DNA from: Escherichia coli
GTDB lineage: Bacteria > Pseudomonadota > Gammaproteobacteria > Enterobacterales > Enterobacteriaceae
Strand: one strand, 5' to 3'
Assembly (NCBI RefSeq): GCF_009931435.1
Contig: NZ_CP043414.1
DNA length: 64,000 nt
A program made the translations under genes and the position numbers. The notes below the pieces were generated by a model. That model made no database searches, had not been told where the DNA came from, and worked only from the letters and a program-made list of their open reading frames with translations. This document shows, piece by piece, positions 39,433 through 58,519 of the stretch (the stretch's first letter is position 1; each line of letters begins with the position of its first letter).

Positions 39433-42400
39433 ATGAAAAAGTTACGCGTAGCCGCCTGCATGCTAATGCTGGCGCTGGCAGGGTGCGACAACGACAACAA
39501 CGATAACGCGCCAACAGCGGTGAAAAAAGATGCACCTTCTGAAGTTACTAAAGCGGCATCTTCAGAAAACGCGAGTTCAGCAAAACTCTCTGCACCGGAG
39601 CGACAAAAACTGGCACAACAGAGTGCCGGTAAGGCGCTGACATTGCTGGATCTCTCTGAAGTCCAACTCGATGGCGCAGCCACGCTGGTGCTGACCTTCT
39701 CTATCCCTCTCGACCCGGATCAGGATTTCTCGCGCGTTATTCACGTCGTTGATAAAAAAAGCGGCAAAGTGGATGGGGCCTGGGAGCTGTCAGATAATCT
39801 TAAAGAGCTGCGTTTACGCCACCTCGAGCCGAAACGTGATTTGATCGTTACTATTGGCAAGGAGGTCAAGGCACTCAACAACGCAACCTTCAGTAAAGAT
39901 TACGAAAAAACTATAACTACCCGCGATATCCAGCCCAGCGTCGGTTTTGCCAGCCGTGGTTCGCTGCTGCCTGGAAAAGTCATTGAAGGGCTGCCGGTAA
40001 TGGCGCTCAATGTTAACAATGTCGATGTTAACTTCTTCCGTGTTAAGCCAGAATCTCTGCCAGCATTTATTAGCCAATGGGAATACCGAAATTCGCTGGC
40101 GAACTGGCAGTCAGACAAACTGCTGCAAATGGCGGATCTGGTTTATACCGGACGTTTTGATCTCAATCCTGCGCGTAACACCCGTGAAAAATTATTGCTG
40201 CCGCTGGGTGATATCAAACCGCTTCAGCAGGCGGGTGTGTATCTGGCTGTGATGAATCAGGCTGGACGTTACGATTACAGTAATCCCGCGACGCTGTTTA
40301 CATTAAGTGATATCGGCGTATCGGCCCACCGTTATCACAATCGTCTGGATATCTTTACCCAAAGCCTGGAAAACGGCGCGGCCCAGCAAGGAGTTGAAGT
40401 CTCATTATTAAATGAGAAAGGGCAGACTCTGACTCAGGCAACCAGTGATGCCCAGGGGCATGTGCAGCTGGAAAATGATAAAAACGCGGCATTACTGTTG
40501 GCGCGTAAAGACGGTCAGACAACGCTACTCGATTTAAAACTTCCGGCGCTGGACTTAGCAGAATTTAACATTGCTGGCGCGCCAGGCTATAACAAACAGT
40601 TTTTCATGTTTGGCCCGCGCGATCTTTATCGCCCGGGTGAAACAGTCATCCTTAATGGTTTATTGCGTGATGCAGACGGTAAAGCGTTGCCCGATCAACC
40701 CATCAAGCTGGACGTAATTAAACCCGACGGGCAGGTACTCAGGAGCGTCGTTAGTCAGCCGGAGAATGGCCTCTATCACTTTACGTGGCCACTCGATAGT
40801 AATGCGGCCACCGGCATGTGGCATATCCGAGCCAATACGGGCGATAACCAGTATCGGATGTGGGATTTCCACGTCGAAGATTTTATGCCAGAGCGTATGG
40901 CGCTGAATCTGACCGGTGAGAAAACCCCGCTAACGCCGAAAGATGAAGTGAAATTCTCCGTGGTGGGTTACTACCTGTACGGGGCGCCTGCTAATGGTAA
41001 TACTTTGCAAGGGCAACTTTTCCTGCGCCCACTGCGTGAAGCTGTGTCAGCCTTACCTGGTTTCGAATTCGGCGATATAGCTGCTGAAAACCTTTCGCGC
41101 ACGCTGGATGAAGTTCAGTTGACGCTGGATGATAAAGGGCGCGGCGAAGTTTCTACAGAAAGCCAGTGGAAGGAAACGCATTCCCCATTACAGGTTATTT
41201 TCCAGGGCAGTTTGCTGGAGTCTGGCGGTCGCCCGGTGACGCGCCGTGCTGAGCAGGCTATCTGGCCTGCCGATGCATTGCCGGGGATCCGTCCGCAATT
41301 CGCCTCGAAATCGGTTTACGATTATCGCACTGACAGTACGGTAAAACAGCCCATTGTTGATGAAGGCAGTAACGCCGCTTTCGACATCGTTTATAGCGAT
41401 GCACAGGGCGTCAAAAAAGCTGTGTCTGGCTTACAAGTGCGCCTGATTCGCGAACGCCGCGATTACTACTGGAACTGGTCAGAAGATGAAGGCTGGCAGT
41501 CACAGTTTGATCAAAAAGATCTGATCGAAAATGAACAAACACTGGATCTTCAGGCTGATGAAACCGGTAAAGTCAGTTTCCCGGTAGAGTGGGGCGCTTA
41601 TCGTCTGGAAGTCAAAGCGCCGAATGAAGCGGTCAGTAGTGTGCGTTTCTGGGCTGGCTATAGCTGGCAGGACAATAGCGACGGTAGCGGTGCTGTGCGA
41701 CCAGACCGTGTCACGCTGAAACTGGATAAAGCCAGTTATCGCCCTGGTGATACCATTAAGTTGCACATTGCCGCACCAACGGCGGGTAAAGGCTATGCGA
41801 TGGTCGAGTCCAGTGAAGGGCCGCTGTGGTGGCAGGAGATTGATGTTCCGGCACAAGGGCTGGATCTGACGATTCCGGTCGATAAAACCTGGAATCGTCA
41901 TGATCTTTATTTAAGTACGCTGGTGGTACGTCCTGGCGATAAATCTCGCTCCGCGACGCCAAAACGCGCAGTTGGCGTGTTGCATTTGCCGCTTGGCGAT
42001 GAAAACCGTCGTCTCGATCTGGCGCTGGAAACTCCAGCGAAAATACGCCCCAATCAGCCATTAACCGTGAAAATTAAAGCCAGCAATAAAAATGGTGAGA
42101 TGCCAAAACAGGTGAATGTGCTGGTGTCTGCGGTTGATAGCGGTGTGTTGAATATTACTGATTATGTCACGCCAGATCCGTGGCAGGCATTCTTTGGTCA
42201 GAAACGCTATGGCGCAGATATTTACGATATTTACGGTCAGGTCATTGAAGGTCAGGGGCGTCTGGCAGCTCTGCGTTTTGGTGGCGATGGTGATGAACTG
42301 AAACGCGGTGGTAAACCGCCAGTAAATCACGTCAATATTGTTGCGCAACAGGCGCTACCGGTAACACTCAACGAACAGGGCGAAGGCACGGTTACATTGC

Positions 42401-44400
42401 CGATTGGTGATTTTAACGGTGAATTGCGCGTCATGGCACAAGCATGGACGGCAGATGATTTCGGTAGCAACGAAAGCAAAGTGGTTGTTGCCGCACCGGT
42501 GATAGCAGAACTGAATATGCCGCGCTTTATGGCCAGCGGTGACACCTCACGTCTGACGCTGGATATCACTAATCTTACCGATAAACCGCAAAAACTGAAC
42601 GTTGCTCTGACCGCCAGTGGCTTGCTTGAACTGGTTAGCGATTCACCCGCAGCCGTTGAATTAGCGCCGGGCGTGCGAACCACGCTGTTTATCCCGGTGC
42701 GAGCATTGCCGGGTTATGGTGATGGTGAAATTCAGGCCACTATTAGCGGGTTAGCGTTACCGGGCGAAACCGCTGCCGATCAGCATAAGCAGTGGAAAAT
42801 GGGTGTCCGTCCGGCATTTCCGGCACAAACCGTCAATTACGGTACGGCGTTGCAGCCTGGTGAGACATGGGCGATTCCAGCTGATGGATTGCAAAACTTC
42901 TCGCCTGTTACGCTGGAAGGGCAATTGTTGTTGAGCGGCAAACCACCGTTGAATATTGCACGTTATATCAAAGAGTTAAAAGCGTATCCGTACGGTTGTC
43001 TGGAGCAAACCGCCAGCGGCCTGTTCCCGTCACTTTACACCAACGCAGCCCAACTGCAGGCGTTGGGAATCAAAGGCGACAGTGATGAGAAGCGCCGTAC
43101 GGCAGTCGATATCGGCATTTCTCGTTTACTGCAAATGCAACGTGATAACGGTGGCTTTGCGCTGTGGGATAAAAACGGTGATGAAGAGTACTGGCTGACG
43201 GCTTACGTGATGGATTTTCTGGTCCGCGCAGGTGAGCAGGGTTACAGCGTGCCGACAGAAGCCATTAACCGGGGGAATGAGCGTCTACTGCGCTATTTAC
43301 AAGATCCGGGCATGATGTCGATTCCGTATGCGGATAATCTCAAAGCCAGTAAATTCGCCGTACAGTCTTACGCTGCGCTGGTGCTGGCCCGTCAGCAAAA
43401 GGCACCGCTGGGTGCGCTGCGTGAAATCTGGGAGCATCGTGCCGATGCTGCGTCTGGATTACCGCTGCTGCAACTTGGCGTTGCGCTGAAAACCATGGGC
43501 GATGCAACGCGTGGTGAAGAAGCGATTGTGCTGGCGCTGAAAACGCCGCGCAATAGTGATGAGCGGATATGGCTGGGTGATTACGGAAGTCCACTGCGCG
43601 ACAACGCATTGATGCTCTCCTTGCTGGAAGAGAACAAATTGCTACCCGATGAGCAGTACCCTCTGCTGAACACACTTTCGCAGCAGGCGTTCGGTGAACG
43701 CTGGTTATCAACTCAGGAAAGTAACGCGCTGTTCCTGGCTGCCCGTACGATTCAGGATTTACCGGGCAAATGGCAGGCGCAAACGTCTTTCTCTGCTGAG
43801 CTGCTGACAGGTGAGAAAGCGCAAACCAGCAATCTGAATAGCGATCAACTTGCCACCTTACAGGTGACCAACAGTGGCGATCAGCCGTTATGGCTGCGTG
43901 TGGATGCCAGCGGATATCCGCAATCCGCCCCTTTACCGGCGAGCAATGTGCTGCAAATCGAGCGCCATATTCTTGGCACTGACGGTAAGAGCAAATCGCT
44001 GGATTCGTTACGTAGCGGCGATCTGGTACTGGTCTGGTTGCAGGTCAAAGCCAGTAACAGCGTGCCGGATGCTTTGGTCGTTGATTTACTGCCTGCTGGC
44101 CTGGAACTGGAAAACCAGAACCTGGCTAACGGCAGCGCCAGCCTGGAGCAAAGTGGTAGCGAAGTGCAAAACCTACTCAGTCAAATGCAACAAGCGAACA
44201 TTAAGCATATTGAGTTTCGTGACGATCGCTTTGTGGCGGCGGTTGCCGTTGATGAATATCAACCAGTCACGCTGGTGTATCTGGCGCGGGCGGTAACGCC
44301 GGGAACATACAATGTTCCGCAACCAATGGTGGAATCGATGTATGTTCCCCACTGGCGGGCGACTGGCGCGGCTGAAGATCTGTTGATTGTCAGACCGTAA
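39433..44400 (+). CDS. yfhM: Alpha-2-macroglobulin family lipoprotein
   Basis: 1655 aa; lipoprotein signal LALAGC; thioester motif CLEQ within YGCLEQTASG. Confidence 0.9.
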   Translation: MKKLRVAACMLMLALAGCDNDNNDNAPTAVKKDAPSEVTKAASSENASSAKLSAPERQKLAQQSAGKALTLLDLSEVQLDGAATLVLTFSIPLDPDQDFSRVIHVVDKKSGKVDGAWELSDNLKELRLRHLEPKRDLIVTIGKEVKALNNATFSKDYEKTITTRDIQPSVGFASRGSLLPGKVIEGLPVMALNVNNVDVNFFRVKPESLPAFISQWEYRNSLANWQSDKLLQMADLVYTGRFDLNPARNTREKLLLPLGDIKPLQQAGVYLAVMNQAGRYDYSNPATLFTLSDIGVSAHRYHNRLDIFTQSLENGAAQQGVEVSLLNEKGQTLTQATSDAQGHVQLENDKNAALLLARKDGQTTLLDLKLPALDLAEFNIAGAPGYNKQFFMFGPRDLYRPGETVILNGLLRDADGKALPDQPIKLDVIKPDGQVLRSVVSQPENGLYHFTWPLDSNAATGMWHIRANTGDNQYRMWDFHVEDFMPERMALNLTGEKTPLTPKDEVKFSVVGYYLYGAPANGNTLQGQLFLRPLREAVSALPGFEFGDIAAENLSRTLDEVQLTLDDKGRGEVSTESQWKETHSPLQVIFQGSLLESGGRPVTRRAEQAIWPADALPGIRPQFASKSVYDYRTDSTVKQPIVDEGSNAAFDIVYSDAQGVKKAVSGLQVRLIRERRDYYWNWSEDEGWQSQFDQKDLIENEQTLDLQADETGKVSFPVEWGAYRLEVKAPNEAVSSVRFWAGYSWQDNSDGSGAVRPDRVTLKLDKASYRPGDTIKLHIAAPTAGKGYAMVESSEGPLWWQEIDVPAQGLDLTIPVDKTWNRHDLYLSTLVVRPGDKSRSATPKRAVGVLHLPLGDENRRLDLALETPAKIRPNQPLTVKIKASNKNGEMPKQVNVLVSAVDSGVLNITDYVTPDPWQAFFGQKRYGADIYDIYGQVIEGQGRLAALRFGGDGDELKRGGKPPVNHVNIVAQQALPVTLNEQGEGTVTLPIGDFNGELRVMAQAWTADDFGSNESKVVVAAPVIAELNMPRFMASGDTSRLTLDITNLTDKPQKLNVALTASGLLELVSDSPAAVELAPGVRTTLFIPVRALPGYGDGEIQATISGLALPGETAADQHKQWKMGVRPAFPAQTVNYGTALQPGETWAIPADGLQNFSPVTLEGQLLLSGKPPLNIARYIKELKAYPYGCLEQTASGLFPSLYTNAAQLQALGIKGDSDEKRRTAVDIGISRLLQMQRDNGGFALWDKNGDEEYWLTAYVMDFLVRAGEQGYSVPTEAINRGNERLLRYLQDPGMMSIPYADNLKASKFAVQSYAALVLARQQKAPLGALREIWEHRADAASGLPLLQLGVALKTMGDATRGEEAIVLALKTPRNSDERIWLGDYGSPLRDNALMLSLLEENKLLPDEQYPLLNTLSQQAFGERWLSTQESNALFLAARTIQDLPGKWQAQTSFSAELLTGEKAQTSNLNSDQLATLQVTNSGDQPLWLRVDASGYPQSAPLPASNVLQIERHILGTDGKSKSLDSLRSGDLVLVWLQVKASNSVPDALVVDLLPAGLELENQNLANGSASLEQSGSEVQNLLSQMQQANIKHIEFRDDRFVAAVAVDEYQPVTLVYLARAVTPGTYNVPQPMVESMYVPHWRATGAAEDLLIVRP

Positions 44401-46713
44401 ATGCCTCGCCTGTTAACCAAACGCGGCTGCTGGATAGCGCTGGCAGCTGCGCCTTTTCTCCTTTTTTTTGCCGCGTGGGGAGCAGATAAACTCTGGCCCC
44501 TGCCATTGCATGAAGTCAATCCCGCACGCGTAGTCGTGGCGCAGGATGGTACGCCACTCTGGCGTTTCGCCGATGCTGAGGGCATCTGGCGCTATCCGGT
44601 AACCATCGAAGATGTCTCTCCGCGTTACCTTGAAGCACTGATCAATTATGAAGATCGCTGGTTCTGGAAGCATCCGGGGGTGAATCCATTCTCGGTGGCG
44701 CGCGCAGCATGGCAAGATCTCACTTCGGGACGGGTTATTTCCGGCGGCAGCACACTCACCATGCAGGTTGCTCGTCTGCTTGATCCTCACCCCAAAACTT
44801 TTGGCGGCAAAATTCGCCAGCTCTGGCGCGCGTTTCAACTGGAATGGCACTTGTCTAAACGTGACATTCTGACCTTGTATCTTAATCGCGCTCCGTTTGG
44901 TGGTACGTTGCAGGGGATCGGTGCGGCAAGTTGGGCATATCTCGGAAAATCGCCTGCGAATTTAAGCTATTCCGAGGCGGCAATGCTGGCGGTGTTACCA
45001 CAAGCGCCCAGCCGACTGCGTCCGGATCGCTGGCCGGAACGTGCCGAGGCCGCACGTAATAAAGTGCTCAATCGGATGGCTGCGCAAGGTGTGTGGTCCC
45101 GTGAGCAGGTAAAAGAATCTAGTGAAGAGCCCATCTGGTTGGCACCCAGACAAATGCCGCAACTGGCACCGCTGTTTTCGCGCATGATGCTCGGTAAAAG
45201 CAAAAGCGACAAAATCGTTACTACGCTGGATGCTGGTTTACAGCGTCGTCTGGAAGAACTGGCGCAAAACTGGAAAGGACGATTGCCACCGCGCAGTTCG
45301 TTGGCAATGATCGTTGTTGATCATACTGATATGAGTGTGCGCGGCTGGATAGGATCGGTTGATCTTAATGATGATTCCCGCTTTGGGCATGTCGATATGG
45401 TCAATGCGATCCGATCGCCGGGATCGGTACTCAAACCGTTTGTTTATGGTCTGGCGCTGGATGAAGGCTTGATCCACCCTGCATCGCTGTTGCAAGACGT
45501 TCCCCGGCGCACTGGTGATTATCGACCAGGCAACTTTGACAGCGGTTTTCATGGCCCGATCAGCATGAGTGAGGCGCTGGTGCGCTCGCTGAATTTACCT
45601 GCTGTGCAGGTGCTGGAAGCCTATGGACCGAAACGGTTTGCGGCAAAGTTACGCAATGTTGGATTGCCGTTATATTTGCCCAACGGTGCTGCACCGAATC
45701 TTTCGCTCATTCTCGGCGGCGCAGGTGCAAAACTGGAGGATATGGCTGCAGCGTATACCGCATTTGCTCGCCACGGTAAGGCGGGTAAGTTGCGCTTACA
45801 GCCGGGGGACCCATTACTTGAGCGACCGTTAATGTCGCCGGGGGCCGCGTGGATTATCCGCCGTATTATGGCAGATGAAGCGCAGCCGCTTCCGGATGGC
45901 GCTTTGCCACGCGTCGTACCACTGGCGTGGAAAACAGGAACCAGTTATGGCTATCGCGATGCATGGGCTATTGGCGTTAACGCTCGTTACGTAATTGGGA
46001 TCTGGACTGGCAGACCGGACGGTACGCCCGTTGTCGGTCAGTTTGGCTTTGCCAGCGCCGTACCGCTGTTGAATCAGGTCAATAATATCTTACTGTCGCG
46101 CAGTGCGAATCTGCCGGAAGACCCGCGTCCTGATTCTGTAAGCCGTGGCGTTATCTGCTGGCCTGGTGGGCAATCATTGCCAGAAGGCGATAGCAATTGC
46201 CGCCGTCGTCTTGCCACCTGGCTGCTCGAAGATAGCCAGCCACCAACATTACTTTTACCGGAGCAAGAAGGAATAAGTGGGATTCGTTTCCCCATCTGGC
46301 TTGATGAGCAAGGCAAACGTGTTGCCGCTGATTGTCCTCAGGCTCGACAAGAAATGATTAATGTCTGGCCATTACCACTTGAACCCTGGCTACCTGCTGC
46401 TGAACGACGAGCAGCGCGCTTACCTGGGGCATCAACAAATTGCCCGCCGTATGGTCGTGATGCTCAGGTACCTTTACAGTTGATTGGTGTGCGTGATGGC
46501 GTAATTATCAAACGTCTGCCAGGAGCTACTGATGCGTCATTACCAGTACAATTAAGCGGAGGAACAGGCGAACGCTGGTGGTTTCTTAATGGTGAACCGT
46601 TAGCTGAACGCGGGCGTAACGTGACTCTGCATTTGACAGAGAAAGGCGATTATCAATTGCTGGTAATGGACGAAATGGGGCAGGTGGCGACAGTGAGATT
46701 TGTCATGCAGTAG
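44401..46713 (+). CDS. pbpC: Penicillin-binding protein 1C (bifunctional transglycosylase/transpeptidase)
   Basis: 770 aa; ATG immediately follows the yfhM stop; transpeptidase motifs SxxK (SVLK) and KTGT. Confidence 0.9.
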   Translation: MPRLLTKRGCWIALAAAPFLLFFAAWGADKLWPLPLHEVNPARVVVAQDGTPLWRFADAEGIWRYPVTIEDVSPRYLEALINYEDRWFWKHPGVNPFSVARAAWQDLTSGRVISGGSTLTMQVARLLDPHPKTFGGKIRQLWRAFQLEWHLSKRDILTLYLNRAPFGGTLQGIGAASWAYLGKSPANLSYSEAAMLAVLPQAPSRLRPDRWPERAEAARNKVLNRMAAQGVWSREQVKESSEEPIWLAPRQMPQLAPLFSRMMLGKSKSDKIVTTLDAGLQRRLEELAQNWKGRLPPRSSLAMIVVDHTDMSVRGWIGSVDLNDDSRFGHVDMVNAIRSPGSVLKPFVYGLALDEGLIHPASLLQDVPRRTGDYRPGNFDSGFHGPISMSEALVRSLNLPAVQVLEAYGPKRFAAKLRNVGLPLYLPNGAAPNLSLILGGAGAKLEDMAAAYTAFARHGKAGKLRLQPGDPLLERPLMSPGAAWIIRRIMADEAQPLPDGALPRVVPLAWKTGTSYGYRDAWAIGVNARYVIGIWTGRPDGTPVVGQFGFASAVPLLNQVNNILLSRSANLPEDPRPDSVSRGVICWPGGQSLPEGDSNCRRRLATWLLEDSQPPTLLLPEQEGISGIRFPIWLDEQGKRVAADCPQARQEMINVWPLPLEPWLPAAERRAARLPGASTNCPPYGRDAQVPLQLIGVRDGVIIKRLPGATDASLPVQLSGGTGERWWFLNGEPLAERGRNVTLHLTEKGDYQLLVMDEMGQVATVRFVMQ

Positions 46714-46861
46714 TCTGTTTTGCTCATATTTGTTGCTTAAACTCGTTTTATTTTAAAAAAATGTTACCTTCATCAATAGTCAACGGCCCTGTTGCTCATT
46801 ATAATCCGCGCCATCTCGTACGCTGGTACAGACAACAACAGAATAATTTACAGAGGTAAAA

Positions 46862-47293
46862 ATGGCTATTGAACGTACTTTTTCCATCATCAAACCGAAC
46901 GCGGTAGCAAAAAACGTCATTGGCAATATCTTTGCGCGCTTTGAAGCTGCAGGGTTCAAAATTGTCGGCACCAAAATGCTGCACCTGACCGTTGAACAGG
47001 CTCGTGGCTTTTATGCTGAACACGATGGAAAACCGTTCTTTGATGGTCTGGTTGAATTCATGACCTCTGGCCCGATCGTGGTTTCCGTGCTGGAGGGTGA
47101 AAACGCCGTTCAGCGTCACCGCGATCTGCTGGGCGCGACCAATCCGGCAAACGCACTGGCCGGTACTCTGCGTGCTGATTACGCTGACAGCCTGACCGAA
47201 AATGGTACCCACGGTTCTGATTCCGTCGAATCTGCCGCTCGCGAAATCGCTTATTTCTTCGGCGAAGGCGAAGTGTGCCCGCGCACCCGTTAA
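46862..47293 (+). CDS. ndk: Nucleoside diphosphate kinase
   Basis: 143 aa; active-site region NGTHGSDS. Confidence 0.95.
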
Positions 47294-47442
47294 TAATTTC
47301 GTAAATGCCGCGTGCAAACGTGGCATCCATGCGCCAGAATTTGTACAATGCAGCGCCCCCGGACGAGCAGCCGCTCACCGGGGCGTTTCTTTTTTCAACC
47401 CTCCAGGGGCCATAACGTGTAATAACGAGGCCGGAATAGCAT

Positions 47443-48597
47443 ATGTCTGAACAATTAGTCACACCTGAAAACGTCACCACGAAAGATGGAAAAATCAACC
47501 TGCTGGATCTCAACCGTCAGCAGATGCGGGAGTTTTTTAAAGATTTAGGTGAAAAACCCTTCCGCGCCGATCAGGTGATGAAGTGGATGTATCACTATTG
47601 CTGCGACAACTTTGATGAGATGACCGACATCAACAAAGTGTTGCGCGGTAAACTAAAAGAGGTGGCGGAAATCCGCGCACCGGAAGTGGTTGAAGAACAG
47701 CGTTCATCTGACGGCACCATTAAATGGGCGATTGCCGTTGGCGATCAGCGCGTCGAAACGGTGTATATCCCGGAAGACGACCGTGCCACGCTTTGCGTTT
47801 CCTCGCAGGTGGGGTGTGCGCTGGAGTGTAAATTCTGTTCCACCGCCCAGCAGGGCTTTAACCGCAATCTGCGGGTGTCGGAAATTATCGGCCAGGTGTG
47901 GCGTGCAGCGAAAATCGTTGGCGCAGCAAAAGTCACCGGTCAGCGCCCAATCACTAACGTAGTGATGATGGGTATGGGCGAGCCGCTGCTCAACCTGAAC
48001 AACGTCGTTCCGGCGATGGAAATCATGCTCGATGATTTCGGTTTTGGTCTGTCTAAACGTCGCGTTACGCTCTCTACATCAGGCGTTGTTCCGGCGCTGG
48101 ATAAACTGGGCGATATGATCGACGTAGCGCTGGCAATTTCCCTGCATGCGCCGAACGACGAAATTCGTGACGAAATTGTGCCGATCAACAAAAAGTACAA
48201 TATCGAAACGTTCCTTGCTGCGGTGCGCCGCTATCTGGAGAAATCTAACGCCAATCAGGGCCGAGTCACTATTGAATACGTGATGCTTGATCACGTTAAC
48301 GACGGCACTGAACACGCGCACCAACTGGCGGAGCTGCTGAAAGATACGCCGTGTAAGATCAACCTGATCCCGTGGAACCCGTTCCCTGGCGCGCCGTATG
48401 GACGCAGCTCAAACAGTCGTATCGACCGTTTCTCTAAAGTGCTGATGAGCTACGGTTTCACCACTATTGTGCGTAAAACTCGTGGTGATGATATCGATGC
48501 TGCCTGTGGTCAGTTGGCGGGCGATGTTATCGACCGTACGAAACGTACCCTGCGTAAACGAATGCAGGGTGAGGCCATCGACATTAAAGCGGTCTGA
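47443..48597 (+). CDS. rlmN: 23S rRNA/tRNA m2A methyltransferase RlmN (radical SAM)
   Basis: 384 aa; radical-SAM Cys motif CALECKFC. Confidence 0.95.
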
Positions 48598-48602
48598 TAG
48601 CC

Positions 48603-48645
48603 ATTACGCCACGGTTACTTTATGTACCGTGGCGTAATCTTTTAT
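48603..48645 (+). terminator. Hairpin terminator downstream of rlmN
   Basis: 12-bp stem attacgccacgg / ccgtggcgtaat followed by a T-rich tail. Confidence 0.55.
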
Positions 48646-48881
48646 GAATGAAGTATTAAGTTGCAATTGTCTGGTCAATATTAACGGTGCGTTTTTGCTG
48701 ACTTTAAGGCAGTATGTAACGATGCAACAGTAAGTTAGCCTTAGTGAATGTGGGCTTTGTCACGAGCACACAGACGGTCTTATACTGTATGATAACGGTT
48801 AACTTAACGGATGTTTCGCGGTGTGGGTGAGCATGATGGTTCACCGGCATCTCAATTCTCATTTAAACGTACCTGCAGCGA

Positions 48882-49895
48882 ATGAATACTGAAGCCACGC
48901 ACGACCAAAATGAAGCACTTACTACCGGCGCTCGCCTGCGTAATGCTCGCGAACAACTAGGACTTAGTCAGCAGGCCGTTGCTGAGCGACTTTGCCTGAA
49001 GGTTTCCACGGTACGCGACATTGAAGAAGATAAGGCACCTGCCGATCTTGCTTCAACATTCCTGCGCGGATATATCCGCTCTTATGCGCGTCTGGTACAT
49101 ATTCCAGAAGAAGAACTGCTACCGGGGCTGGAAAAACAGGCTCCACTACGAGCTGCAAAAGTTGCGCCGATGCAGAGTTTTTCCCTCGGTAAACGCCGCA
49201 AAAAACGTGACGGCTGGCTGATGACCTTCACCTGGCTGGTGTTGTTTGTGGTTATTGGCCTGAGCGGTGCCTGGTGGTGGCAAGACCACAAAGCTCAGCA
49301 GGAAGAGATCACTACTATGGCCGATCAATCTTCTGCGGAACTGAGCAGTAATAACGAACAGGGGCAGAGTGTTCCGTTAGATACGTCGACAACCACAGAC
49401 CCGACTACGACGTCCACGCCGCCAGCGTCTGTGGATACTACCGCAACTAACACGCAAACACCTGCCATAACTTCGCCAGCACCAGCTGTTGATTCACAAC
49501 AGAATGCAGTTGTTTCACCTTCGCAGGCAAATGTTGATACCGCTGCGACCCCGGCACCAACGGCAACAACAACGCCAGATGGTGCTGCGCCGTTGCCAAC
49601 CGATCAGGCTGGCGTGACCACGCCGGCGGCTGACCCGAATGCGTTGGTGATGAACTTTACTGCCGATTGCTGGCTGGAAGTCACTGACGCTACCGGTAAA
49701 AAACTGTTTAGCGGTATGCAGCGTAAAGACGGTAATTTGAACTTAACCGGCCAGGCTCCGTACAAACTGAAAATTGGTGCGCCAGCCGCAGTACAGATCC
49801 AGTATCAAGGGAAACCTGTCGATCTGAGTCGTTTTATCAGAACTAACCAGGTTGCGCGTCTGACCCTAAATGCCGAACAATCACCGGCGCAGTAA
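48882..49895 (+). CDS. rodZ: Cytoskeleton protein RodZ
   Basis: 337 aa; N-terminal HTH, a single TM segment and a Thr/Pro-rich periplasmic linker. Confidence 0.9.
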
Positions 49896-49921
49896 CAGAC
49901 GGGTAACGCGGGAGATTTTTC

Positions 49922-51040
49922 ATGCATAACCAGGCTCCAATTCAACGTAGAAAATCAACACGTATTTACGTTGGGAATGTGCCGATTGGCGATGGTGCCC
50001 CCATCGCCGTACAGTCCATGACCAATACGCGTACGACAGACGTCGAAGCTACGGTCAATCAAATTAAGGCGCTGGAACGTGTTGGCGCTGATATCGTCCG
50101 TGTCTCCGTACCGACGATGGACGCGGCAGAAGCGTTCAAGCTCATCAAACAACAGGTTAACGTGCCGCTGGTGGCTGACATCCACTTCGACTATCGCATT
50201 GCGCTGAAAGTAGCGGAATACGGCGTCGATTGTCTGCGTATTAACCCTGGCAATATCGGCAATGAAGAACGCATCCGCATGGTGGTTGACTGTGCGCGCG
50301 ATAAAAACATTCCGATCCGTATTGGCGTTAACGCTGGATCGCTGGAAAAAGATCTGCAAGAAAAGTATGGCGAACCGACGCCGCAGGCGTTGCTGGAATC
50401 TGCCATGCGTCATGTTGATCATCTCGATCGCCTGAACTTCGATCAGTTCAAAGTCAGCGTGAAAGCGTCTGACGTCTTCCTCGCTGTTGAGTCTTATCGT
50501 TTGCTGGCAAAACAGATCGATCAACCGCTGCATCTTGGGATCACCGAAGCGGGTGGCGCACGTAGTGGGGCAGTAAAATCTGCCATTGGTTTAGGCCTGC
50601 TGCTGTCTGAAGGCATCGGCGACACGCTGCGCGTATCGCTGGCGGCCGATCCGGTCGAAGAGATCAAAGTCGGTTTCGATATTTTGAAATCGCTGCGTAT
50701 CCGTTCGCGCGGGATCAACTTCATCGCCTGCCCGACCTGTTCGCGTCAGGAGTTTGACGTTATCGGTACGGTTAACGCCCTGGAGCAACGCCTGGAAGAT
50801 ATCATCACCCCGATGGACGTTTCGATTATCGGCTGCGTGGTGAATGGACCAGGTGAGGCGCTGGTTTCTACACTCGGCGTCACCGGCGGCAACAAGAAAA
50901 GCGGCCTCTATGAAGATGGCGTGCGCAAAGACCGTCTGGACAACAACGATATGATCGACCAGCTGGAAGCGCGCATTCGTGCGAAAGCCAGCCAACTGGA
51001 TGAAGCGCGTCGAATTGACGTTCAGCAGGTTGAAAAATAA
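49922..51040 (+). CDS. ispG: 4-hydroxy-3-methylbut-2-en-1-yl diphosphate synthase
   Basis: 372 aa; C-terminal [4Fe-4S] Cys motif CPTCSR ... GCVVNGPGE. Confidence 0.95.
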
Positions 51041-51150
51041 TAACGTGATGGGAAGCGCCTCGCTTCCCGTGTATGATTGAACCCGCATGGCTCCCGAAAT
51101 ATTGAGGGGCGCGTTGAGGGTTCATTTTTATATTCAGAAAGAGAATAAAC

Positions 51151-52440
51151 GTGTCGAAGAAAATTCAGTCTGTACGCGGTATGAATGATTATTTGCCAGT
51201 GGAAACCGCTGTATGGCAACGCGTTGAGCGCATAATTAAAAGCGTTGTTGAGTCTTACGGATACAGTGAGATTCGCACACCTATTCTTGAGCAAACGCCA
51301 CTGTTTAAGCGCGCTATCGGTGAAGTTACCGATGTTGTTGAAAAGGAGATGTACACCTTCAACGATCGTGAGCGTGATGCAAAAGAGGTTGTCTCGTTAA
51401 CTCTTCGCCCTGAAGGTACAGCAGGATGTGTACGCGCCGGTATAGAGCATGGCCTTCTGTACAATCAGGAACAGCGTTTGTGGTATATGGGGCCGATGTT
51501 CCGTCACGAACGCCCGCAAAAAGGTCGTTATCGACAGTTCCACCAAATCGGTCTCGAAGTTTTTGGCCTACAGGGTCCAGATATCGACGCCGAACTCATT
51601 ATGCTTACTGCTCGTTGGTGGCGTGAACTGGGTATCTCTGAACACGTAACTCTTGAGCTGAACTCTATCGGTTCGCTGGAAGCACGCGCCAATTATCGCG
51701 ATGCGCTGGTTGCATTCCTTGAGCAGCATAAAGAAAAGCTGGACGAAGACTGCAAACGCCGCATGTACACTAACCCGCTGCGCGTGCTGGATTCCAAAAA
51801 TCCGGAAGTGCAGGCCCTTCTCAACGACGCCCCAGCATTAGGTGACTATCTTGACGAGGAATCTCGTGAGCACTTTGCTGGTCTGTGCAAACTGCTGGAG
51901 AGCGCGGGTATCGCTTACACCGTAAACCAGCGTCTGGTGCGTGGTCTGGATTACTATAACCGTACTGTTTTTGAGTGGGTGACTAACAGCCTCGGTTCCC
52001 AGGGCACCGTGTGCGCAGGCGGTCGTTATGACGGTCTGGTGGAACAACTGGGTGGTCGTGCAACACCGGCAGTCGGTTTCGCGATGGGCCTCGAACGTCT
52101 TGTATTGTTAGTTCAGGCCGTTAATCCGGAATTTAAAGCCGATCCTGTTGTCGATATATATCTGGTGGCTTCAGGTGCTGACACACAATCTGCGGCTATG
52201 GCATTAGCAGAGCGTCTGCGTGATGAATTACCGGGCGTGAAACTGATGACCAACCACGGCGGCGGCAACTTTAAGAAGCAGTTTGCCCGTGCTGATAAAT
52301 GGGGCGCCCGCGTTGCTGTGGTGCTGGGTGAGTCTGAAGTGGCTAACGGCACAGCAGTAGTGAAGGATTTGCGCTCTGGTGAGCAAACGGCAGTTGCGCA
52401 GGATAGCGTAGCCGCGCATTTGCGCACGTTACTGGGTTAA
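51151..52440 (+). CDS. hisS: Histidine--tRNA ligase (N-terminal ~150 codons divergent from the K-12 allele)
   Basis: 429 aa from a GTG start; class II aaRS motifs present; the C-terminal ~280 aa match K-12 HisRS as recalled, while the N-terminal region differs and is 5 aa longer. Confidence 0.9.
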
Positions 52441-52457
52441 GGAAGGAGAAGGACAGC

Positions 52458-53078
52458 GTGGAAATTTACGAGAACGAAAACGACCAGGTTGAAGCGGTTA
52501 AACGCTTTTTTGCTGAAAATGGCAAAGCACTGGCTGTTGGGGTGATTTTGGGCGTTGGCGCATTGATTGGCTGGCGCTACTGGAACAGCCATCAGGTTGA
52601 TTCTACACGCTCCGCTTCTCTTGCCTATCAAAATGCGGTTACCGCAGTGAGCGAAGGCAAACCGGATAGCATCCCGGCGGCGGAAAAATTTGCTGCTGAA
52701 AATAAAAATACCTATGGTGCGCTGGCTTCTTTGGAACTTGCGCAGCAATTTGTTGACAAAAATGAACTAGAGAAAGCTGCCACCCAGTTACAACAGGGAT
52801 TGGCAGACACGAGCGATGAAAATCTCAAAGCCGTGATAAATCTGCGTCTTGCCCGCGTTCAGGTACAGCTCAAGCAGGCTGATGCCGCGCTGAAAACCCT
52901 CGATACCATCAAAGGTGAAGGGTGGGCTGCCATTGTTGCCGACCTGCGTGGCGAAGCATTGCTGAGCAAAGGTGATAAGCAAGGTGCGCGTAGTGCATGG
53001 GAAGCTGGCGTGAAAAGCGATGTTACCCCGGCACTGAGCGAAATGATGCAGATGAAAATTAATAATTTGTCCATCTGA
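52458..53078 (+). CDS. yfgM: Membrane-anchored TPR-like protein YfgM
   Basis: 206 aa; N-terminal TM anchor; K-12 synteny between hisS and bamB. Confidence 0.85.
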   Translation: MEIYENENDQVEAVKRFFAENGKALAVGVILGVGALIGWRYWNSHQVDSTRSASLAYQNAVTAVSEGKPDSIPAAEKFAAENKNTYGALASLELAQQFVDKNELEKAATQLQQGLADTSDENLKAVINLRLARVQVQLKQADAALKTLDTIKGEGWAAIVADLRGEALLSKGDKQGARSAWEAGVKSDVTPALSEMMQMKINNLSI

Positions 53079-53088
53079 GAGGGACCCG

Positions 53089-54267
53089 ATGCAATTGCGT
53101 AAATTACTGCTGCCAGGACTGCTTTCCGTTACCCTTTTAAGCGGCTGTTCGCTGTTTAACAGCGAAGAAGATGTGGTAAAGATGTCCCCATTGCCGACCG
53201 TTGAAAACCAGTTTACGCCGACCACGGCGTGGAGCACTTCCGTGGGTAGCGGCATTGGCAACTTCTATTCCAATCTTCATCCGGCACTGGCGGACAACGT
53301 TGTCTATGCAGCAGACCGCGCTGGTTTAGTAAAAGCGCTGAATGCGGATGATGGCAAAGAAATCTGGTCTGTCAGTCTGGCCGAGAAAGATGGCTGGTTC
53401 TCTAAAGAGCCTGCATTACTTTCTGGCGGCGTGACCGTGTCTGGCGGACATGTCTACATTGGTAGCGAAAAGGCGCAGGTTTACGCGCTGAATACCAGTG
53501 ATGGTACTGTGGCATGGCAGACTAAAGTCGCGGGTGAAGCGCTTTCTCGCCCGGTGGTCAGCGACGGTCTGGTGTTAATCCACACCAGTAATGGTCAGTT
53601 GCAAGCCCTGAACGAAGCTGACGGCGCTGTCAAATGGACAGTTAACCTCGATATGCCTTCACTCTCTTTGCGTGGCGAGTCTGCGCCAGCAACGGCTTTT
53701 GGTGCGGCCGTCGTGGGTGGCGATAATGGTCGCGTCAGCGCAGTGCTAATGGAACAGGGCCAGATGATTTGGCAGCAGCGTATTTCCCAGGCGACCGGTT
53801 CTACCGAAATTGACCGCCTGAGCGATGTTGACACGACTCCCGTCATTGTTAACGGCGTTGTTTTCGCGCTGGCCTATAATGGTAACCTGACGGCGCTTGA
53901 TCTGCGCAGCGGTCAGATTATGTGGAAGCGCGAACTGGGTTCGGTGAATGATTTCATCGTCGACGGCAACCGCATCTATCTGGTCGATCAAAATGACCGG
54001 GTGATGGCGTTGACCATTGATGGCGGCGTTACGCTGTGGACACAAAGCGATCTGCTGCATCGCCTGTTGACTTCTCCGGTGCTGTATAATGGCAACCTGG
54101 TGGTAGGTGACAGTGAAGGTTATCTGCACTGGATCAACGTCGAAGATGGTCGTTTCGTTGCCCAGCAAAAAGTTGATAGCTCCGGTTTCCAGACTGAACC
54201 GGTTGCCGCTGACGGCAAACTGCTGATCCAGGCAAAAGACGGGACTGTGTACTCTATTACACGTTAA
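53089..54267 (+). CDS. bamB: Outer membrane protein assembly lipoprotein BamB
   Basis: 392 aa; lipobox LLSGC; PQQ-like beta-propeller repeats. Confidence 0.9.
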   Translation: MQLRKLLLPGLLSVTLLSGCSLFNSEEDVVKMSPLPTVENQFTPTTAWSTSVGSGIGNFYSNLHPALADNVVYAADRAGLVKALNADDGKEIWSVSLAEKDGWFSKEPALLSGGVTVSGGHVYIGSEKAQVYALNTSDGTVAWQTKVAGEALSRPVVSDGLVLIHTSNGQLQALNEADGAVKWTVNLDMPSLSLRGESAPATAFGAAVVGGDNGRVSAVLMEQGQMIWQQRISQATGSTEIDRLSDVDTTPVIVNGVVFALAYNGNLTALDLRSGQIMWKRELGSVNDFIVDGNRIYLVDQNDRVMALTIDGGVTLWTQSDLLHRLLTSPVLYNGNLVVGDSEGYLHWINVEDGRFVAQQKVDSSGFQTEPVAADGKLLIQAKDGTVYSITR

Positions 54268-54384
54268 TCGTCTCTGTCGTTCACTTTGAAAACGGCTCCT
54301 GGACAGGGGCCGTTTTCCTGTTTTTAACAACGACACGAATATAGCGTGCGTTGTCTGATGATTTATAAAAATGAGGCTTTAAAC

Positions 54385-55857
54385 ATGGTACCTGTGGTCG
54401 CGCTTGTCGGGCGCCCTAACGTAGGAAAATCCACGTTATTTAACCGTCTAACTCGCACCCGAGATGCGCTGGTTGCGGATTTCCCGGGTCTGACTCGTGA
54501 CCGTAAGTACGGTCGTGCGGAAATTGAAGGCCGCGAGTTTATCTGTATTGATACCGGCGGGATTGACGGAACAGAAGACGGTGTAGAAACCCGCATGGCG
54601 GAACAGTCGCTGCTGGCGATTGAAGAAGCGGACGTCGTACTGTTTATGGTGGATGCGCGCGCGGGCCTGATGCCTGCGGATGAAGCGATTGCTAAACATC
54701 TGCGCTCCCGCGAAAAACCGACCTTCCTGGTGGCAAACAAAACCGATGGTCTGGATCCGGATCAGGCCGTTGTTGATTTCTATTCGCTCGGTTTAGGTGA
54801 AATCTATCCTATCGCCGCGTCTCACGGTCGTGGCGTATTAAGTCTGCTGGAGCACGTGCTGTTGCCGTGGATGGAAGATATCGCACCACAAGAAGAAGTG
54901 GATGAAGACGCTGAATACTGGGCGCAATTTGAAGCAGAAGAAAACGGCGAAGAAGAAGAGGAAGATGACTTTGACCCGCAAAGTCTGCCAATCAAACTGG
55001 CGATAGTGGGTCGTCCTAACGTCGGTAAGTCGACACTCACTAACCGTATCCTTGGCGAAGAACGCGTCGTGGTTTACGACATGCCGGGCACTACGCGTGA
55101 CAGTATCTACATTCCAATGGAACGCGATGGGCGTGAGTATGTACTCATTGACACTGCGGGCGTACGTAAACGCGGCAAAATCACCGATGCGGTAGAGAAA
55201 TTCTCCGTAATCAAAACATTGCAGGCGATTGAAGATGCCAACGTGGTGATGTTGGTGATTGATGCTCGCGAGGGTATTTCCGATCAGGATCTCTCCTTAC
55301 TGGGCTTTATTCTCAATAGTGGGCGCTCACTTGTGATTGTAGTGAACAAGTGGGACGGCCTGAGCCAGGAAGTGAAAGAGCAAGTAAAAGAGACGCTGGA
55401 CTTCCGTCTGGGCTTTATCGACTTCGCCCGTGTGCATTTTATCTCTGCATTACACGGCAGCGGCGTTGGTAACCTGTTTGAGTCAGTACGTGAAGCGTAT
55501 GACAGCTCCACCCGTCGCGTGGGTACGTCAATGCTGACGCGTATCATGACCATGGCGGTTGAAGATCACCAGCCGCCGCTGGTTCGCGGGCGTCGTGTGA
55601 AGCTGAAATATGCCCACGCCGGGGGTTATAACCCGCCAATTGTGGTGATTCATGGCAACCAGGTGAAAGACCTGCCTGATTCCTATAAGCGTTATCTGAT
55701 GAACTACTTCCGCAAGTCTCTGGACGTGATGGGTACGCCGATTCGTATTCAGTTCAAAGAAGGGGAAAACCCATATGCGAACAAGCGTAACACCCTGACG
55801 CCGACCCAGATGCGCAAGCGTAAGCGTTTGATGAAGCATATTAAGAAAAGTAAGTAA
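54385..55857 (+). CDS. der: Ribosome-associated GTPase Der (EngA)
   Basis: 490 aa from [16 protein letters not shown]; two G domains (GRPNVGKST twice) separated by an acidic linker; the ORF track extends the frame to 54346. Confidence 0.95.
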
Positions 55858-55919
55858 TCACTTATCTGGTTTCCCTTTCCAAACGGAGAGGGAAACTGAA
55901 CAACAGGCGAGGAGTATTT

Positions 55920-56135
55920 ATGGAACTCAACTGCCCAACCTGCCATAACCCTCTCGAACGCAACGGTGAAACTGCCCACTGTGCAACTTGTGCCAAAGAT
56001 TTCACCATTCAGGCGCTTTGTCCTGACTGCCATCAGCCATTACAGGTGTTAAAAGCTTGTGGTGCAGTAGATTATTTCTGCCAGCATGGGCACGGTTTAA
56101 TATCCAAAAAGCGCGTTGAATTTATTGTTGCTTAA
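55920..56135 (+). CDS. yfgJ: Small Cys-rich zinc-ribbon-like protein
   Basis: 71 aa with CPTC ... CATC ... CPDC ... CQHGH motifs; K-12 synteny after der. Confidence 0.8.
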   Translation: MELNCPTCHNPLERNGETAHCATCAKDFTIQALCPDCHQPLQVLKACGAVDYFCQHGHGLISKKRVEFIVA

Positions 56136-56326
56136 TATTATTTAAATATATGGTGTAATCATTTGTATTCATAATATAAATGATTGCATCCTATTTTATT
56201 TGTTGAAACGCAAATGTAAGTGAGCGAAATCACTGTGTTATAAATTTAAGATTATATTTAGTTTTCCTGGCGTGCCTTTCTGAATAATCTGGAATAGAAT
56301 ATTAGAGCTAATTTTAAGCATTATTA
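56136..56326. other. AT-rich core/accessory junction and probable sinH promoter region
   Basis: About 190 bp markedly AT-rich compared with flanking coding DNA; lies where K-12 has the short yfgJ-xseA spacer. Confidence 0.5.
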
Positions 56327-58519
56327 ATGTCACAGGGGATGTGCATGCTGCGATGGAAACGCTGTATTATGCTAACATTTATCTCTGGAGCTGCTTTTGC
56401 GGCTCCAGAGATAAATGTTGAGCATAAAGAATCGTTACCTGATTTAGGTAGTCAGGCCGCACAACAGGAAGAGCAAACTAACAAGGGTAAATCGCTAAAA
56501 GAGCGTGGTGCCGATTACGTCATTAACTCTGCCACGCAAGGGTTTGAAAACCTCACACCCGAGGCGCTGGAGTCCCAGGCCAGAAGCTATCTGCAAAGTC
56601 AAATTACCTCTACGACACAATCTTATATTGAGGATACACTCTCCCCCTACGGTAAGGTCCGAACGAATCTTTCTCTTGGTCAGGGCGGCGATCTGGATGG
56701 CAGTTCCATCGACTATTTTGTTCCCTGGTATGATAATCAAACTACTGTTTATTTCAGCCAATTTTCTGCACAACGAAAAGAAGATCGTACGATCGGGAAT
56801 ATTGGGCTTGGTGTAAGACATAATTTTGATAGATGGTTATTGGGTGGAAATATATTTTATGATTATGATTTTACCCGTGGGCATCGCCGTTTAGGTTTAG
56901 GTGCCGAAGCCTGGACTGATTATTTAAAATTCTCTGGCAACTATTATCATCCGCTTTCTGACTGGAAAGACTCCGAAGATTTCGATTTTTATGAGGAGCG
57001 TCCTGCGCGCGGTTGGGATATTCGCGCCGAAGCCTGGCTACCTGCTTACCCGCAGCTTGGCGGTAAAATCGTTTTCGAACAGTATTACGGTGATGAAGTC
57101 GCGCTTTTTGGCACCGATAATCTGGAGAAAGATCCCTTCGCCGTCACGCTGGGTGTGAAATACCAGCCCGTACCGCTCATTGCCGTAGGAACGGATTTCA
57201 AAGCCGGCACTGGCGATAATACCGATCTTTCTGTTAACGCAACGCTGAACTACCAGTTTGGCGTCTCGCTCAAAGACCAGCTTGATCCTGACAAAGTAAG
57301 CGCGGCTCACTCGCTCATGGGCAGCCGTCACGACTTTGTTGAACGTAACAACTTTATTGTTCTGGAATACAAAGAGAAAGATCCCCTCGATGTCACTTTG
57401 TGGCTGAAAGCTGATGCGACGAATGAACATCCCGAGTGCGTGATTAAAGATACGCCAGAAGCAGCCATCGGGCTGGAAAAATGTAAGTGGACCATTAACG
57501 CGCTCATTAATCATCATTACAAAATCGTTGCTGCCTCCTGGCAGGCGAAAAACAATGCTGCACGTACGCTGGTGATGCCGGTTATCAAAGAAAATACGCT
57601 TACCGAAGGGAACAACAATCACTGGAATCTGGTGCTGCCTGCCTGGCAGTACAGCTCTGATAAAGCCGACCAGGAAAAACTCAATACCTGGCGGGTACGC
57701 CTGGCGCTGGAAGATGAAAAAGGCAATCGGCAGAACTCCGGCGTGGTGGAAATTACCGTTCAGCAGGACCGTAAAATTGAGCTCATTGTTAACAACATCG
57801 CCAATGTACCGGATGAGAACAATCACAGCCACGAAGCCAGCGCGCAAGCGGATGGTGTAGATGGTGTCGTCATGGATCTCGACGTTACCGATAGCTTTGG
57901 CGACAACACTGACCGTAACGGTAATGTCTTGCCGCAGGATAATCTCAGCCCGCAGCTGTTTGATGCCAACGATAAAAAAGTGACGCTGACGAATAAACCC
58001 TGCACCACCGAAGTGCCGTGCGTTTTTATCGTCAAACAAGATAAAGAAAAGGGGACCGTTACGCTCTCCAGTACGTTGCCCGGCACTTTCCGCTGGAAGG
58101 CGAAAGCCGCCCCTTATGATGACAGTAACTATGTTGACGTAACGTTCCTGGGTTCTGACATCGGCGGGCTGAATGCTTTTATCTACCGCGTTGGTGCAGC
58201 TAAGCCCGTCAATCTTATCGGCAACAAAGAACCGTTGCCTCTCAATAGCCGCTATCGCTTTGTGCTGTGGCGCGACGCTAACAAAGACGGCGTGTTCCAG
58301 CTTTCTGAGAAGCTCACTGACGATGAGATGAAACAGTATGACTATCAGTGGGAATTCACGGGGCATAGCGTAAATGGCAATACCGGTGCGCAAACCAATA
58401 CCACGAACGTCGATATAGAGATCCCGGCAACCAACAAGGAAGCGGCAGCAAAGTTTAGTGCCCAGGTAACCGATGGCGTGCAGGGATACGGTTTGCAGGT
58501 CAATTACAGCAAGAAATAG
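56327..58519 (+). CDS. sinH: Intimin/invasin-family outer membrane protein (inverse autotransporter)
   Basis: 730 aa; signal peptide ending AFA; beta-barrel-like segment with aromatic-rich strands (GWDIRAEAWLPAYPQLGGKIVFEQYYGDE); in-frame alternative starts at 56339 and 56345. Confidence 0.7.
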   Translation: MSQGMCMLRWKRCIMLTFISGAAFAAPEINVEHKESLPDLGSQAAQQEEQTNKGKSLKERGADYVINSATQGFENLTPEALESQARSYLQSQITSTTQSYIEDTLSPYGKVRTNLSLGQGGDLDGSSIDYFVPWYDNQTTVYFSQFSAQRKEDRTIGNIGLGVRHNFDRWLLGGNIFYDYDFTRGHRRLGLGAEAWTDYLKFSGNYYHPLSDWKDSEDFDFYEERPARGWDIRAEAWLPAYPQLGGKIVFEQYYGDEVALFGTDNLEKDPFAVTLGVKYQPVPLIAVGTDFKAGTGDNTDLSVNATLNYQFGVSLKDQLDPDKVSAAHSLMGSRHDFVERNNFIVLEYKEKDPLDVTLWLKADATNEHPECVIKDTPEAAIGLEKCKWTINALINHHYKIVAASWQAKNNAARTLVMPVIKENTLTEGNNNHWNLVLPAWQYSSDKADQEKLNTWRVRLALEDEKGNRQNSGVVEITVQQDRKIELIVNNIANVPDENNHSHEASAQADGVDGVVMDLDVTDSFGDNTDRNGNVLPQDNLSPQLFDANDKKVTLTNKPCTTEVPCVFIVKQDKEKGTVTLSSTLPGTFRWKAKAAPYDDSNYVDVTFLGSDIGGLNAFIYRVGAAKPVNLIGNKEPLPLNSRYRFVLWRDANKDGVFQLSEKLTDDEMKQYDYQWEFTGHSVNGNTGAQTNTTNVDIEIPATNKEAAAKFSAQVTDGVQGYGLQVNYSKK

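Follow-up and report, generated by a model that had tools for sequence, protein, structure and literature searches.

Mosaic housekeeping genes generated by homologous recombination have been familiar in Escherichia coli since the segment studies of gnd, trp and phoA in the 1990s. Mosaic genes for penicillin-binding proteins are found in other bacteria, namely pbp2x and pbp2b of Streptococcus pneumoniae and penA of Neisseria. Horizontal transfer is likewise known among the aminoacyl-tRNA synthetases (aaRS), and includes resistance and self-immunity copies such as the mupirocin-resistant IleRS. The gene described here, hisS, encodes histidyl-tRNA synthetase (HisRS) and occupies positions 51151..52440 (+) of a 64,000-nucleotide stretch of E. 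coli DNA (contig NZ_CP043414.1, assembly GCF_009931435.1), which is referred to in its entirety as the window. This gene is a true intragenic mosaic. It very probably arose by homologous recombination with a foreign tract, and the result is presumably both functional and near-neutral.

A native gene with a foreign 5' third

The window hisS starts with GTG and forms a 429-amino-acid open reading frame (ORF) for a chimeric histidine--tRNA ligase. Full-length homology to the solved E. coli HisRS (1KMM/1KMN; E = 1.7e-271, query residues 1-429 to chain residues 1-424) predicts a class IIa histidyl-tRNA synthetase, and an identical gene in R32_14_1F is annotated hisS in RefSeq (WP_032184882.1). With the 424-amino-acid enzyme of 1KMM as the K-12 reference protein, the window HisRS differs by 22 substitutions and by the insertion of five residues, AKEVV, all inside residues 2-159; residues 160-429 are unchanged. 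Much of this had been anticipated in a first-pass annotation made from the letters of the window. The N-terminus and internal segment that it quoted match the 429-amino-acid ORF exactly, the K-12 counterparts that it gave are correct according to the alignment to 1KMM, and the many substitutions and 5-residue insertion that it placed in the first ~150 codons correspond to the changes given above. Its description of the remainder of the gene and its neighbours as K-12-like holds for the protein, whereas the host DNA lies about 3-4% from K-12 in the neighbouring core genes.

Z0117EC0005 (locus L086), a genome of the same lineage with an ordinary hisS allele, offers the most informative comparison. 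It and the window differ at 121 of the 474 aligned columns in 51154-51627, including a 15-bp insertion, and at none of the 721 columns of the flanks, which comprise 133 bp before (51021-51153) and 588 bp after (51628-52215); the clustering of differences in the tract is extreme (Fisher p = 7e-54). Against the K-12-derived strain HB101, identity in 100-nt sliding windows is 65-73% within 51138-51437 and 93-100% in the flanks (50438-51137 and 51638-52537). The breakpoint expected from such a scan is thus present, and a uniform identity of at least 97% across hisS, at which the first-pass annotation would have abandoned its proposal, is not what is seen. Species-wide, 5,425 complete E. coli genomes match 51100-51650, and 5,372 of them do so at ~77.5% identity.

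The differences between the tract and the native sequence are synonymous only in 61 codons and nonsynonymous in 22. Additionally, the G+C content at third codon positions (GC3) is 0.437 in the tract, as against 0.608 in the same region of the clade-mate and 0.524 in the remainder of hisS, in agreement with the more AT-rich codon choice suspected at first reading. This synonymous excess, together with the shift in composition, is characteristic of an orthologue that diverged long ago under purifying selection. Neighbour-joining trees of the two parts of the protein are incongruent. In the tree of the N-terminal module (N-module), HisRS proteins with the insertion, from whichever genus, group in 96/100 bootstrap replicates and neither Escherichia nor Budviciaceae is recovered in any (0/100 each), whereas the tree of the C-terminal part recovers Escherichia in 100/100, Budviciaceae in 87/100 and the insertion-type group in 0/100. 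The first-pass annotation had proposed a replacement from a related enterobacterium; import is upheld by the sharp breakpoints, the synonymous excess, GC3, the incongruent trees and the presence of the nearest relatives of the tract in other genera with the same insertion, with the refinement that the donor is no close relative.

The limits of the import can be drawn closely on the 5' side. The ispG-hisS intergenic region with the leader and ribosome-binding site (51041..51150, +) is native and lies outside the import; it is identical to that of Z0117EC0005 and differs from K-12 solely at 51100, 51109 and 51110. The extent first suggested, 51041-51650, therefore contains the divergent block but begins with 110 bp of native DNA, the tract itself being 51154-51627. 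Upstream polymorphism ends at 51110, and donor-specific bases begin at 51154, in codon 2. The 43 bp between these positions (51111..51153, +), which include the GTG start, are the same in the window, K-12, GF4-3 and sequence type 457 (ST457)-type alleles, and because this stretch is identical in every E. coli allele examined, it is taken as the 5' crossover interval. The unambiguous imported tract follows at 51154..51579 (+; codons 2 to ~143) and encodes an insertion-type, or type-B, N-terminal module; it is unlike every native allele examined (Z0117EC0005, 2017-02-2CC and K-12). Within it, the 15-bp insertion at 51379..51393 (+) supplies residues 77-81 between FNDRERD and SLTLRPEG. Its placement is ambiguous by a few bases, and the DNA alignment puts the gap at ~51382-51396.

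On the 3' side, the table of variable sites shows a further patch at 51591..51627 (+), with eight sites that include A159E. This patch is unlike Z0117EC0005 and K-12 and is common to the clade I strain 2017-02-2CC, whose hisS (L088 1552-2826) encodes 424 amino acids and is otherwise native, yet shares all eight states of the window. Within the region equivalent to 51570-51627, 2017-02-2CC also has private states at 51570 and 51576. Since the patch occurs in an otherwise native gene, the unambiguous import is considered to end near 51579. The patch may be what is left in 2017-02-2CC of a longer import whose 5' side was subsequently overwritten; alternatively, it is a polymorphism of separate origin. 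The native 3' two-thirds of hisS (51628..52440, +) contain a single difference from Z0117EC0005, at 52216.

Despite its composite origin, the window protein keeps all columns that are invariant across 24 Enterobacterales HisRS sequences. These include R86, P87, E88 and T90 of the LRPEG strand and R118, E120, R121, R126, Y127, R128, Q129, F130 and Q132 of motif 2. The chimeric enzyme is likely to be fully functional, including the predicted histidylation of tRNA-His, since hisS is essential and present in single copy, and the mosaic occurs in 53 complete genomes and is fixed in a successful clone. The alignment, along with what is known of class II synthetases, suggests that the insertion lengthens the loop or hairpin before the LRPEG strand. 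Structure prediction from the 24-sequence alignment gave a predicted local distance difference test (pLDDT) score below 50 across residues 39-135, which makes the model uninformative for the part that holds the insertion, and nothing here rests on it.

In the course of events proposed here, foreign hisS DNA would have replaced native codon 2 to ~143-159 (51154 to 51579/51627) by homologous recombination, the donor being an unsampled member of the Enterobacterales with an insertion-type N-terminal HisRS module. The 5' crossover would have fallen in the conserved stretch of leader and start codon at 51111-51153 and the 3' crossover in conserved DNA after motif 2, so that both appear to lie where the DNA is most conserved. 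The product would join a foreign N-terminal third, consisting of motif 1, the lengthened loop before the LRPEG strand and motif 2, to the native remainder of the catalytic core, the insertion domain and the anticodon-binding domain, all under the native regulatory region. Packing of the co-varying residues at 7-81 against one another may be the reason that the module moves as a whole. The replacement was presumably near-neutral in selective terms, and the allele would then have persisted and moved between E. coli lineages.

Distribution of the allele and of the insertion-type module

The lineage of the host was surveyed over 41000-57500 of the window. Over the upstream 10 kb, only 18 complete genomes reach 99% identity or more to the window, and the remaining ~5,400 stand at ~94%. 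These 18 include 2013C-4282, a strain described in the literature as cryptic clade I (PMC10100065), and the host is therefore most likely a member of this divergent E. coli lineage. The host strain itself is probably 2020CK-00188 (100% identity). Its position beside E. fergusonii in a tree of 20 genes led to its being flagged as possibly misclassified (PMC10631056); locally, it is 99.3-99.5% identical to clade I genomes.

The mosaic is found in 53 of 5,426 complete E. coli genomes (~1%), in two lengths. The long form, that of the window, is present in two of the 18 complete clade genomes (2020CK-00188 and R32_14_1F), so the allele is not widespread in its own lineage, a point on which the first-pass annotation had asked for a check; the other clade genomes are 79.6-80.7% identical to the tract. 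The short form is carried by 51 mainstream E. coli genomes. It has the same 5' junction, and typical E. coli sequence resumes near 51555. Over the first ~300 nt (51138-51437) the two forms are 98-100% identical, and their proteins differ by one residue. Both proteins were already in RefSeq as histidine--tRNA ligase (WP_032184882.1 and WP_000037894.1), with exact matches on 105 contigs for the long form and on at least 1,000 for the short. An identical 7-kb upstream flank places 42 of the 51 short-form genomes in one clone, and three of these, MRY15-117, MRY15-131 and CREC-544, are published strains of ST457, phylogroup F (PMC5430464, PMC9860340). Eight others share a 99.3%-identical flank, and that of GF4-3 differs again. 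LR-28, a near relative by its ST457-like flank, is not among the carriers of the mosaic.

A search with blastn at 'distant' sensitivity found a single hisS-like place in each of 5,425 complete E. coli genomes. There is thus no template for gene conversion, and an origin from a paralogue or by gene conversion was ruled out on this ground. The insertion-type hisS was also not found among 72,556 plasmid and 50,697 phage records searched by tblastn with the 165-amino-acid module. All matches in these records were to ordinary hisS of the 160-residue type, mostly in mislabelled chromosomes or prophage-flank DNA, and a plasmid or phage vector was rejected. A second-copy or mobile synthetase of the resistance type was likewise rejected, given the single copy, the lack of any insertion-type copy in the plasmid and phage records searched, and the native ispG and yfgM on either side.

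The module has a wider distribution outside of E. coli, as one N-terminal type appears on several unrelated Enterobacterales backgrounds while the C-terminal part of each protein follows taxonomy; this pattern, seen in protein and DNA alignments, is new here. Four backgrounds can be distinguished: Budvicia/Limnobaculum, the Superficieibacter group, a Serratia-like genome and E. coli. Among the Enterobacterales examined, Superficieibacter, Budvicia and GCA_000307305.1 share the 5-residue insertion with the E. coli mosaic and all others lack it, and the 11 columns that separate the two module types all lie at positions 7-81. Superficieibacter and Budvicia share 0.92 identity in the N-module (aligned columns 1-135) and 0.74 in the C part (columns 166-end). 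For Superficieibacter and E. coli K-12 the order is reversed (0.78 and 0.90), as it is for Budvicia and Pragia, which belong to the same family (0.75 and 0.87). The Superficieibacter electus hisS (L005 3001-4290) is itself mosaic in the same manner. The first ~270-450 nt of this gene are 79-82% identical to Budvicia versus 63-71% to K-12, and the remainder is 76-91% identical to K-12 versus 56-79% to Budvicia. Similarly, GCA_000307305.1 (DF158882.1; L087 3001-4290) has an insertion-type N-module that is closest to Budvicia (91%), and its ispG, yfgM, bamB and HisRS C part are closest to Serratia and other Yersiniaceae. From this incongruence across carriers it follows that the 5' third of hisS has been exchanged between families more than once. 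These inter-family exchanges are old, as third-position identity among the carriers is 0.45-0.60 and synonymous sites are saturated; only the import into E. coli is demonstrably recent relative to the species.

The donor was sought by scanning for a peptide pattern across bacteria, with each species represented by one genome. Among the matches listed, the N-terminus of HisRS aligned over 164-165 residues, with the insertion present, in three genomes, those of Superficieibacter electus, Budvicia aquatica and B. diplopodorum (92%, 90% and 88% amino acid identity over the module); other genera among these matches lacked the insertion and did not exceed 84%. The corresponding DNA identities over the tract are 81%, 77% and 79%, and third codon positions are 46-51% identical between the window and the three species (50% for S. 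electus). With DNA identities of 76-81% and saturated synonymous sites, neither Superficieibacter nor Budvicia is the donor. Thus, the first-pass suggestion that a closest donor be identified yields S. electus as the best of the matches listed, at 81% DNA identity, and no near-identical source. A protein search with the 165-amino-acid module returned almost solely fragments, with nothing closer than the E. coli alleles; the next match was a Budvicia-like chimeric ORF at 89%. A search with the full-length Budvicia HisRS added 429-amino-acid proteins from the Superficieibacter group, Limnobaculum and one Serratia-like genome, none of them above 92% identity to the window module, and a metagenome scan for a degenerate signature peptide gave one Budvicia aquatica-like contig and no closer donor. 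Both E. coli forms are equally far from every sampled carrier. The donor is therefore likely to be an unsampled member of the Enterobacterales, or else one hidden by the scope of the searches. A member of the Enterobacteriaceae that already carried the module could supply homology on both sides. Superficieibacter, for instance, has an ispG that is 98% identical to that of E. coli at the amino acid level and a hisS leader that differs in the crossover interval by one mismatch and one 1-nt indel.

A separate observation from these searches concerns P0004, a 238-amino-acid ORF on an ENA contig, in which a Budvicia-like HisRS N-terminus is fused to ~50 unrelated N-terminal residues (MEEKNEICWRCQKPY...). 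This fusion is probably the result of a mis-called start or of a chimeric short contig.

Alternative explanations

Several points weigh against recombination with a foreign tract as laid out above. No close donor was found, the best match among those listed being S. electus at 81% DNA identity, and the source is accordingly a matter of deduction; a very broad protein cluster holds both the E. coli and the Superficieibacter HisRS, and a sampled donor could have been missed within it. The patch at 51591-51627 occurs in a strain without the module and blurs the 3' boundary, and near-neutrality is an assumption. Finally, the long and short forms differ at 11 of the 402 positions of the shared tract, seven of them in the last 115 nt. 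The absence of a close donor is also all that can be said for an origin in place, by rapid evolution, hypermutation or gene conversion from a paralogue, with no foreign DNA at all. This is exceedingly improbable in view of the 61 codons with synonymous changes only, the fall in GC3 from 0.61 to 0.44, the recurrence of the same insertion and diagnostic residues in other genera, the zero-difference flanks that adjoin 25% divergence, and the single hisS-like place per genome. That the tract is an artefact of assembly or contamination has practically no likelihood, and no observation favours it. The tract is identical in two independently sequenced complete genomes, its short form recurs in 51 more from many laboratories and hosts, and the exact proteins lie on the many contigs counted above, with the frame intact and native flanks; assembly error is therefore excluded.

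Given a foreign origin by recombination, the number of imports must still be considered. The 11 differences between the forms are compatible both with a single import that later spread and was trimmed and with two imports, each from one of a pair of related donors. Independent import of the two forms is nevertheless the somewhat improbable course. It would account for those differences and for their concentration toward the 3' end, for the states private to the ST457 form at 51492, 51504, 51555 and 51595, which are neither K-12-like nor window-like, and for the failure of the clade I flank polymorphisms at 51100, 51109 and 51110 to travel with the ST457 allele. The common 5' junction could also have been forced on independent events, as only the 43-bp leader stretch is conserved. 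Yet the first ~290 nt of the two forms are 98-100% identical, their proteins differ by one residue, both are equally distant from every sampled carrier, and a shared junction interval with an identical insertion is most simply the product of one event. A different question is whether the module was neutral at all. It may instead be adaptive, by altering a HisRS surface targeted by an antagonist (a natural product, toxin or phage factor) or by tuning activity, and selection would then explain its capture by several unrelated Enterobacterales and its fixation in the 42-genome clone that contains ST457. This is unlikely. The presence of the module on four unrelated backgrounds, with the C-terminal part following taxonomy each time, is consistent with such a role, as are the confinement of all 11 diagnostic columns to residues 7-81 and the occurrence of the module in all 42 genomes with identical flanks. 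Type-B and type-A N-modules, moreover, differ by 19-25% in amino acids, compared to 8-15% for type-A modules between families, which suggests a burst of change. However, third-position identities of 0.45-0.60 mark the inter-family events as ancient, with no recent sweep; ~1% of E. coli genomes and two of the 18 clade-mates carry the module; no mobile element or second copy is linked to it; clonal descent by itself would lead to fixation in one clone; and the ratio of nonsynonymous to synonymous change (dN/dS) has the pattern of purifying selection. To our knowledge, no HisRS-directed natural antagonist or inhibitor of enterobacteria has been described, which also counts against adaptation. It is equally doubtful that the insertion-type N-terminal third of HisRS serves as a functional cassette open to horizontal exchange, which Budviciaceae, Superficieibacter, a Serratia-like lineage and E. 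coli would each have acquired on their own under pressure from such an antagonist or for a changed behaviour of the enzyme. Were this so, fixation in the clone containing ST457 would reflect selection and not hitch-hiking.

Neighbouring segments and relation to known mosaic genes

The gene order of the window, ispG-hisS-yfgM-bamB-der, is a conserved context. Directly after ispG, the intergenic region holds a GC-rich inverted repeat at 51060-51085, GGGAAGCGCCTCGCTTCCC, which the leader alignment shows to be kept in Superficieibacter, Citrobacter and Pluralibacter with compensating loop changes; it is likely to be either the terminator of ispG or a REP-like hairpin. Two other variable segments lie nearby. 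In der (54738-55837), the 3' two-thirds are 87-94% identical to K-12, ST457 and GF4-3, with neighbours at 96-100%; only two genomes are at least 99% identical and 18 are at 95-99%. Relative to the clade-mate Z0117EC0005, 17 differences are clustered in 55500-55750, which looks like a second, smaller recombination patch over a der that is divergent clade-wide. The Pro/Thr/Ala-rich linker of rodZ (49341-49637) has 73-85% identity in the comparison of the ST457-type genome 2016C-3878 with other strains. The coding sequences are 1011 and 1014 nt, a 3-bp length difference, and the linker is locally hypervariable and of low complexity.

The hisS mosaic provides a clean example of the import of 27-35% divergent DNA into an essential translation gene with a chimeric enzyme, predicted to work, as the outcome, at a divergence near the upper limit usually thought to be tolerated. 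Since the 15-bp insertion and tract mark all 42 genomes of the clone containing ST457, along with a few other lineages, they may serve as a simple lineage marker; by the same token, hisS misleads single-gene or small core-gene phylogenies of these strains. HisRS is evidently exchangeable in parts, which raises the question of whether the N-terminal module carries a selectable property. A full-text literature search of incomplete coverage found no paper describing a hisS mosaic or intragenic recombination in this gene.

Of the described cases, the mosaics of gnd, trp and phoA are matched in most respects: the hisS patch is short and sharply bounded within a core chromosomal gene, has native flanks and no mobile element, and occurs in a minority of strains while being common to unrelated lineages. 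It departs from them in the 27-35% nucleotide divergence of its core, where within-species imports typically amount to a few percent, and in its in-frame 15-bp insertion in the gene for an essential aminoacyl-tRNA synthetase. The mosaic pbp and penA genes also contain blocks from other species, ~20% divergent, in an essential gene, and likewise yield chimeric enzymes with end points that vary by strain. Those genes, however, have a known phenotype under beta-lactam selection, whereas the hisS tract shows purifying selection, with 61 versus 22 codon changes. As with transferred aaRS genes, a translation enzyme has been exchanged between distant bacteria and would still work with the tRNA of its host. 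Such transfers involve whole genes, often as an extra copy on a plasmid or beside a biosynthetic cluster, whereas in hisS only the N-terminal third was exchanged, in place and in single copy. The closest proteins are the HisRS of Superficieibacter electus (WP_103677706.1), Budvicia aquatica and B. diplopodorum, which have the same 429 amino acids in length, the insertion and residues S7, V8, E34 and L46, and are 88-92% identical in amino acids over the module. Their DNA is only 76-81% identical, and their C parts agree with their own taxonomy (identity to E. coli, 0.90 for Superficieibacter and 0.76 for Budvicia). Together, these comparisons make the hisS mosaic a textbook case of intragenic recombination, set apart only by how distant the donor is and by the partial exchange of an aminoacyl-tRNA synthetase.

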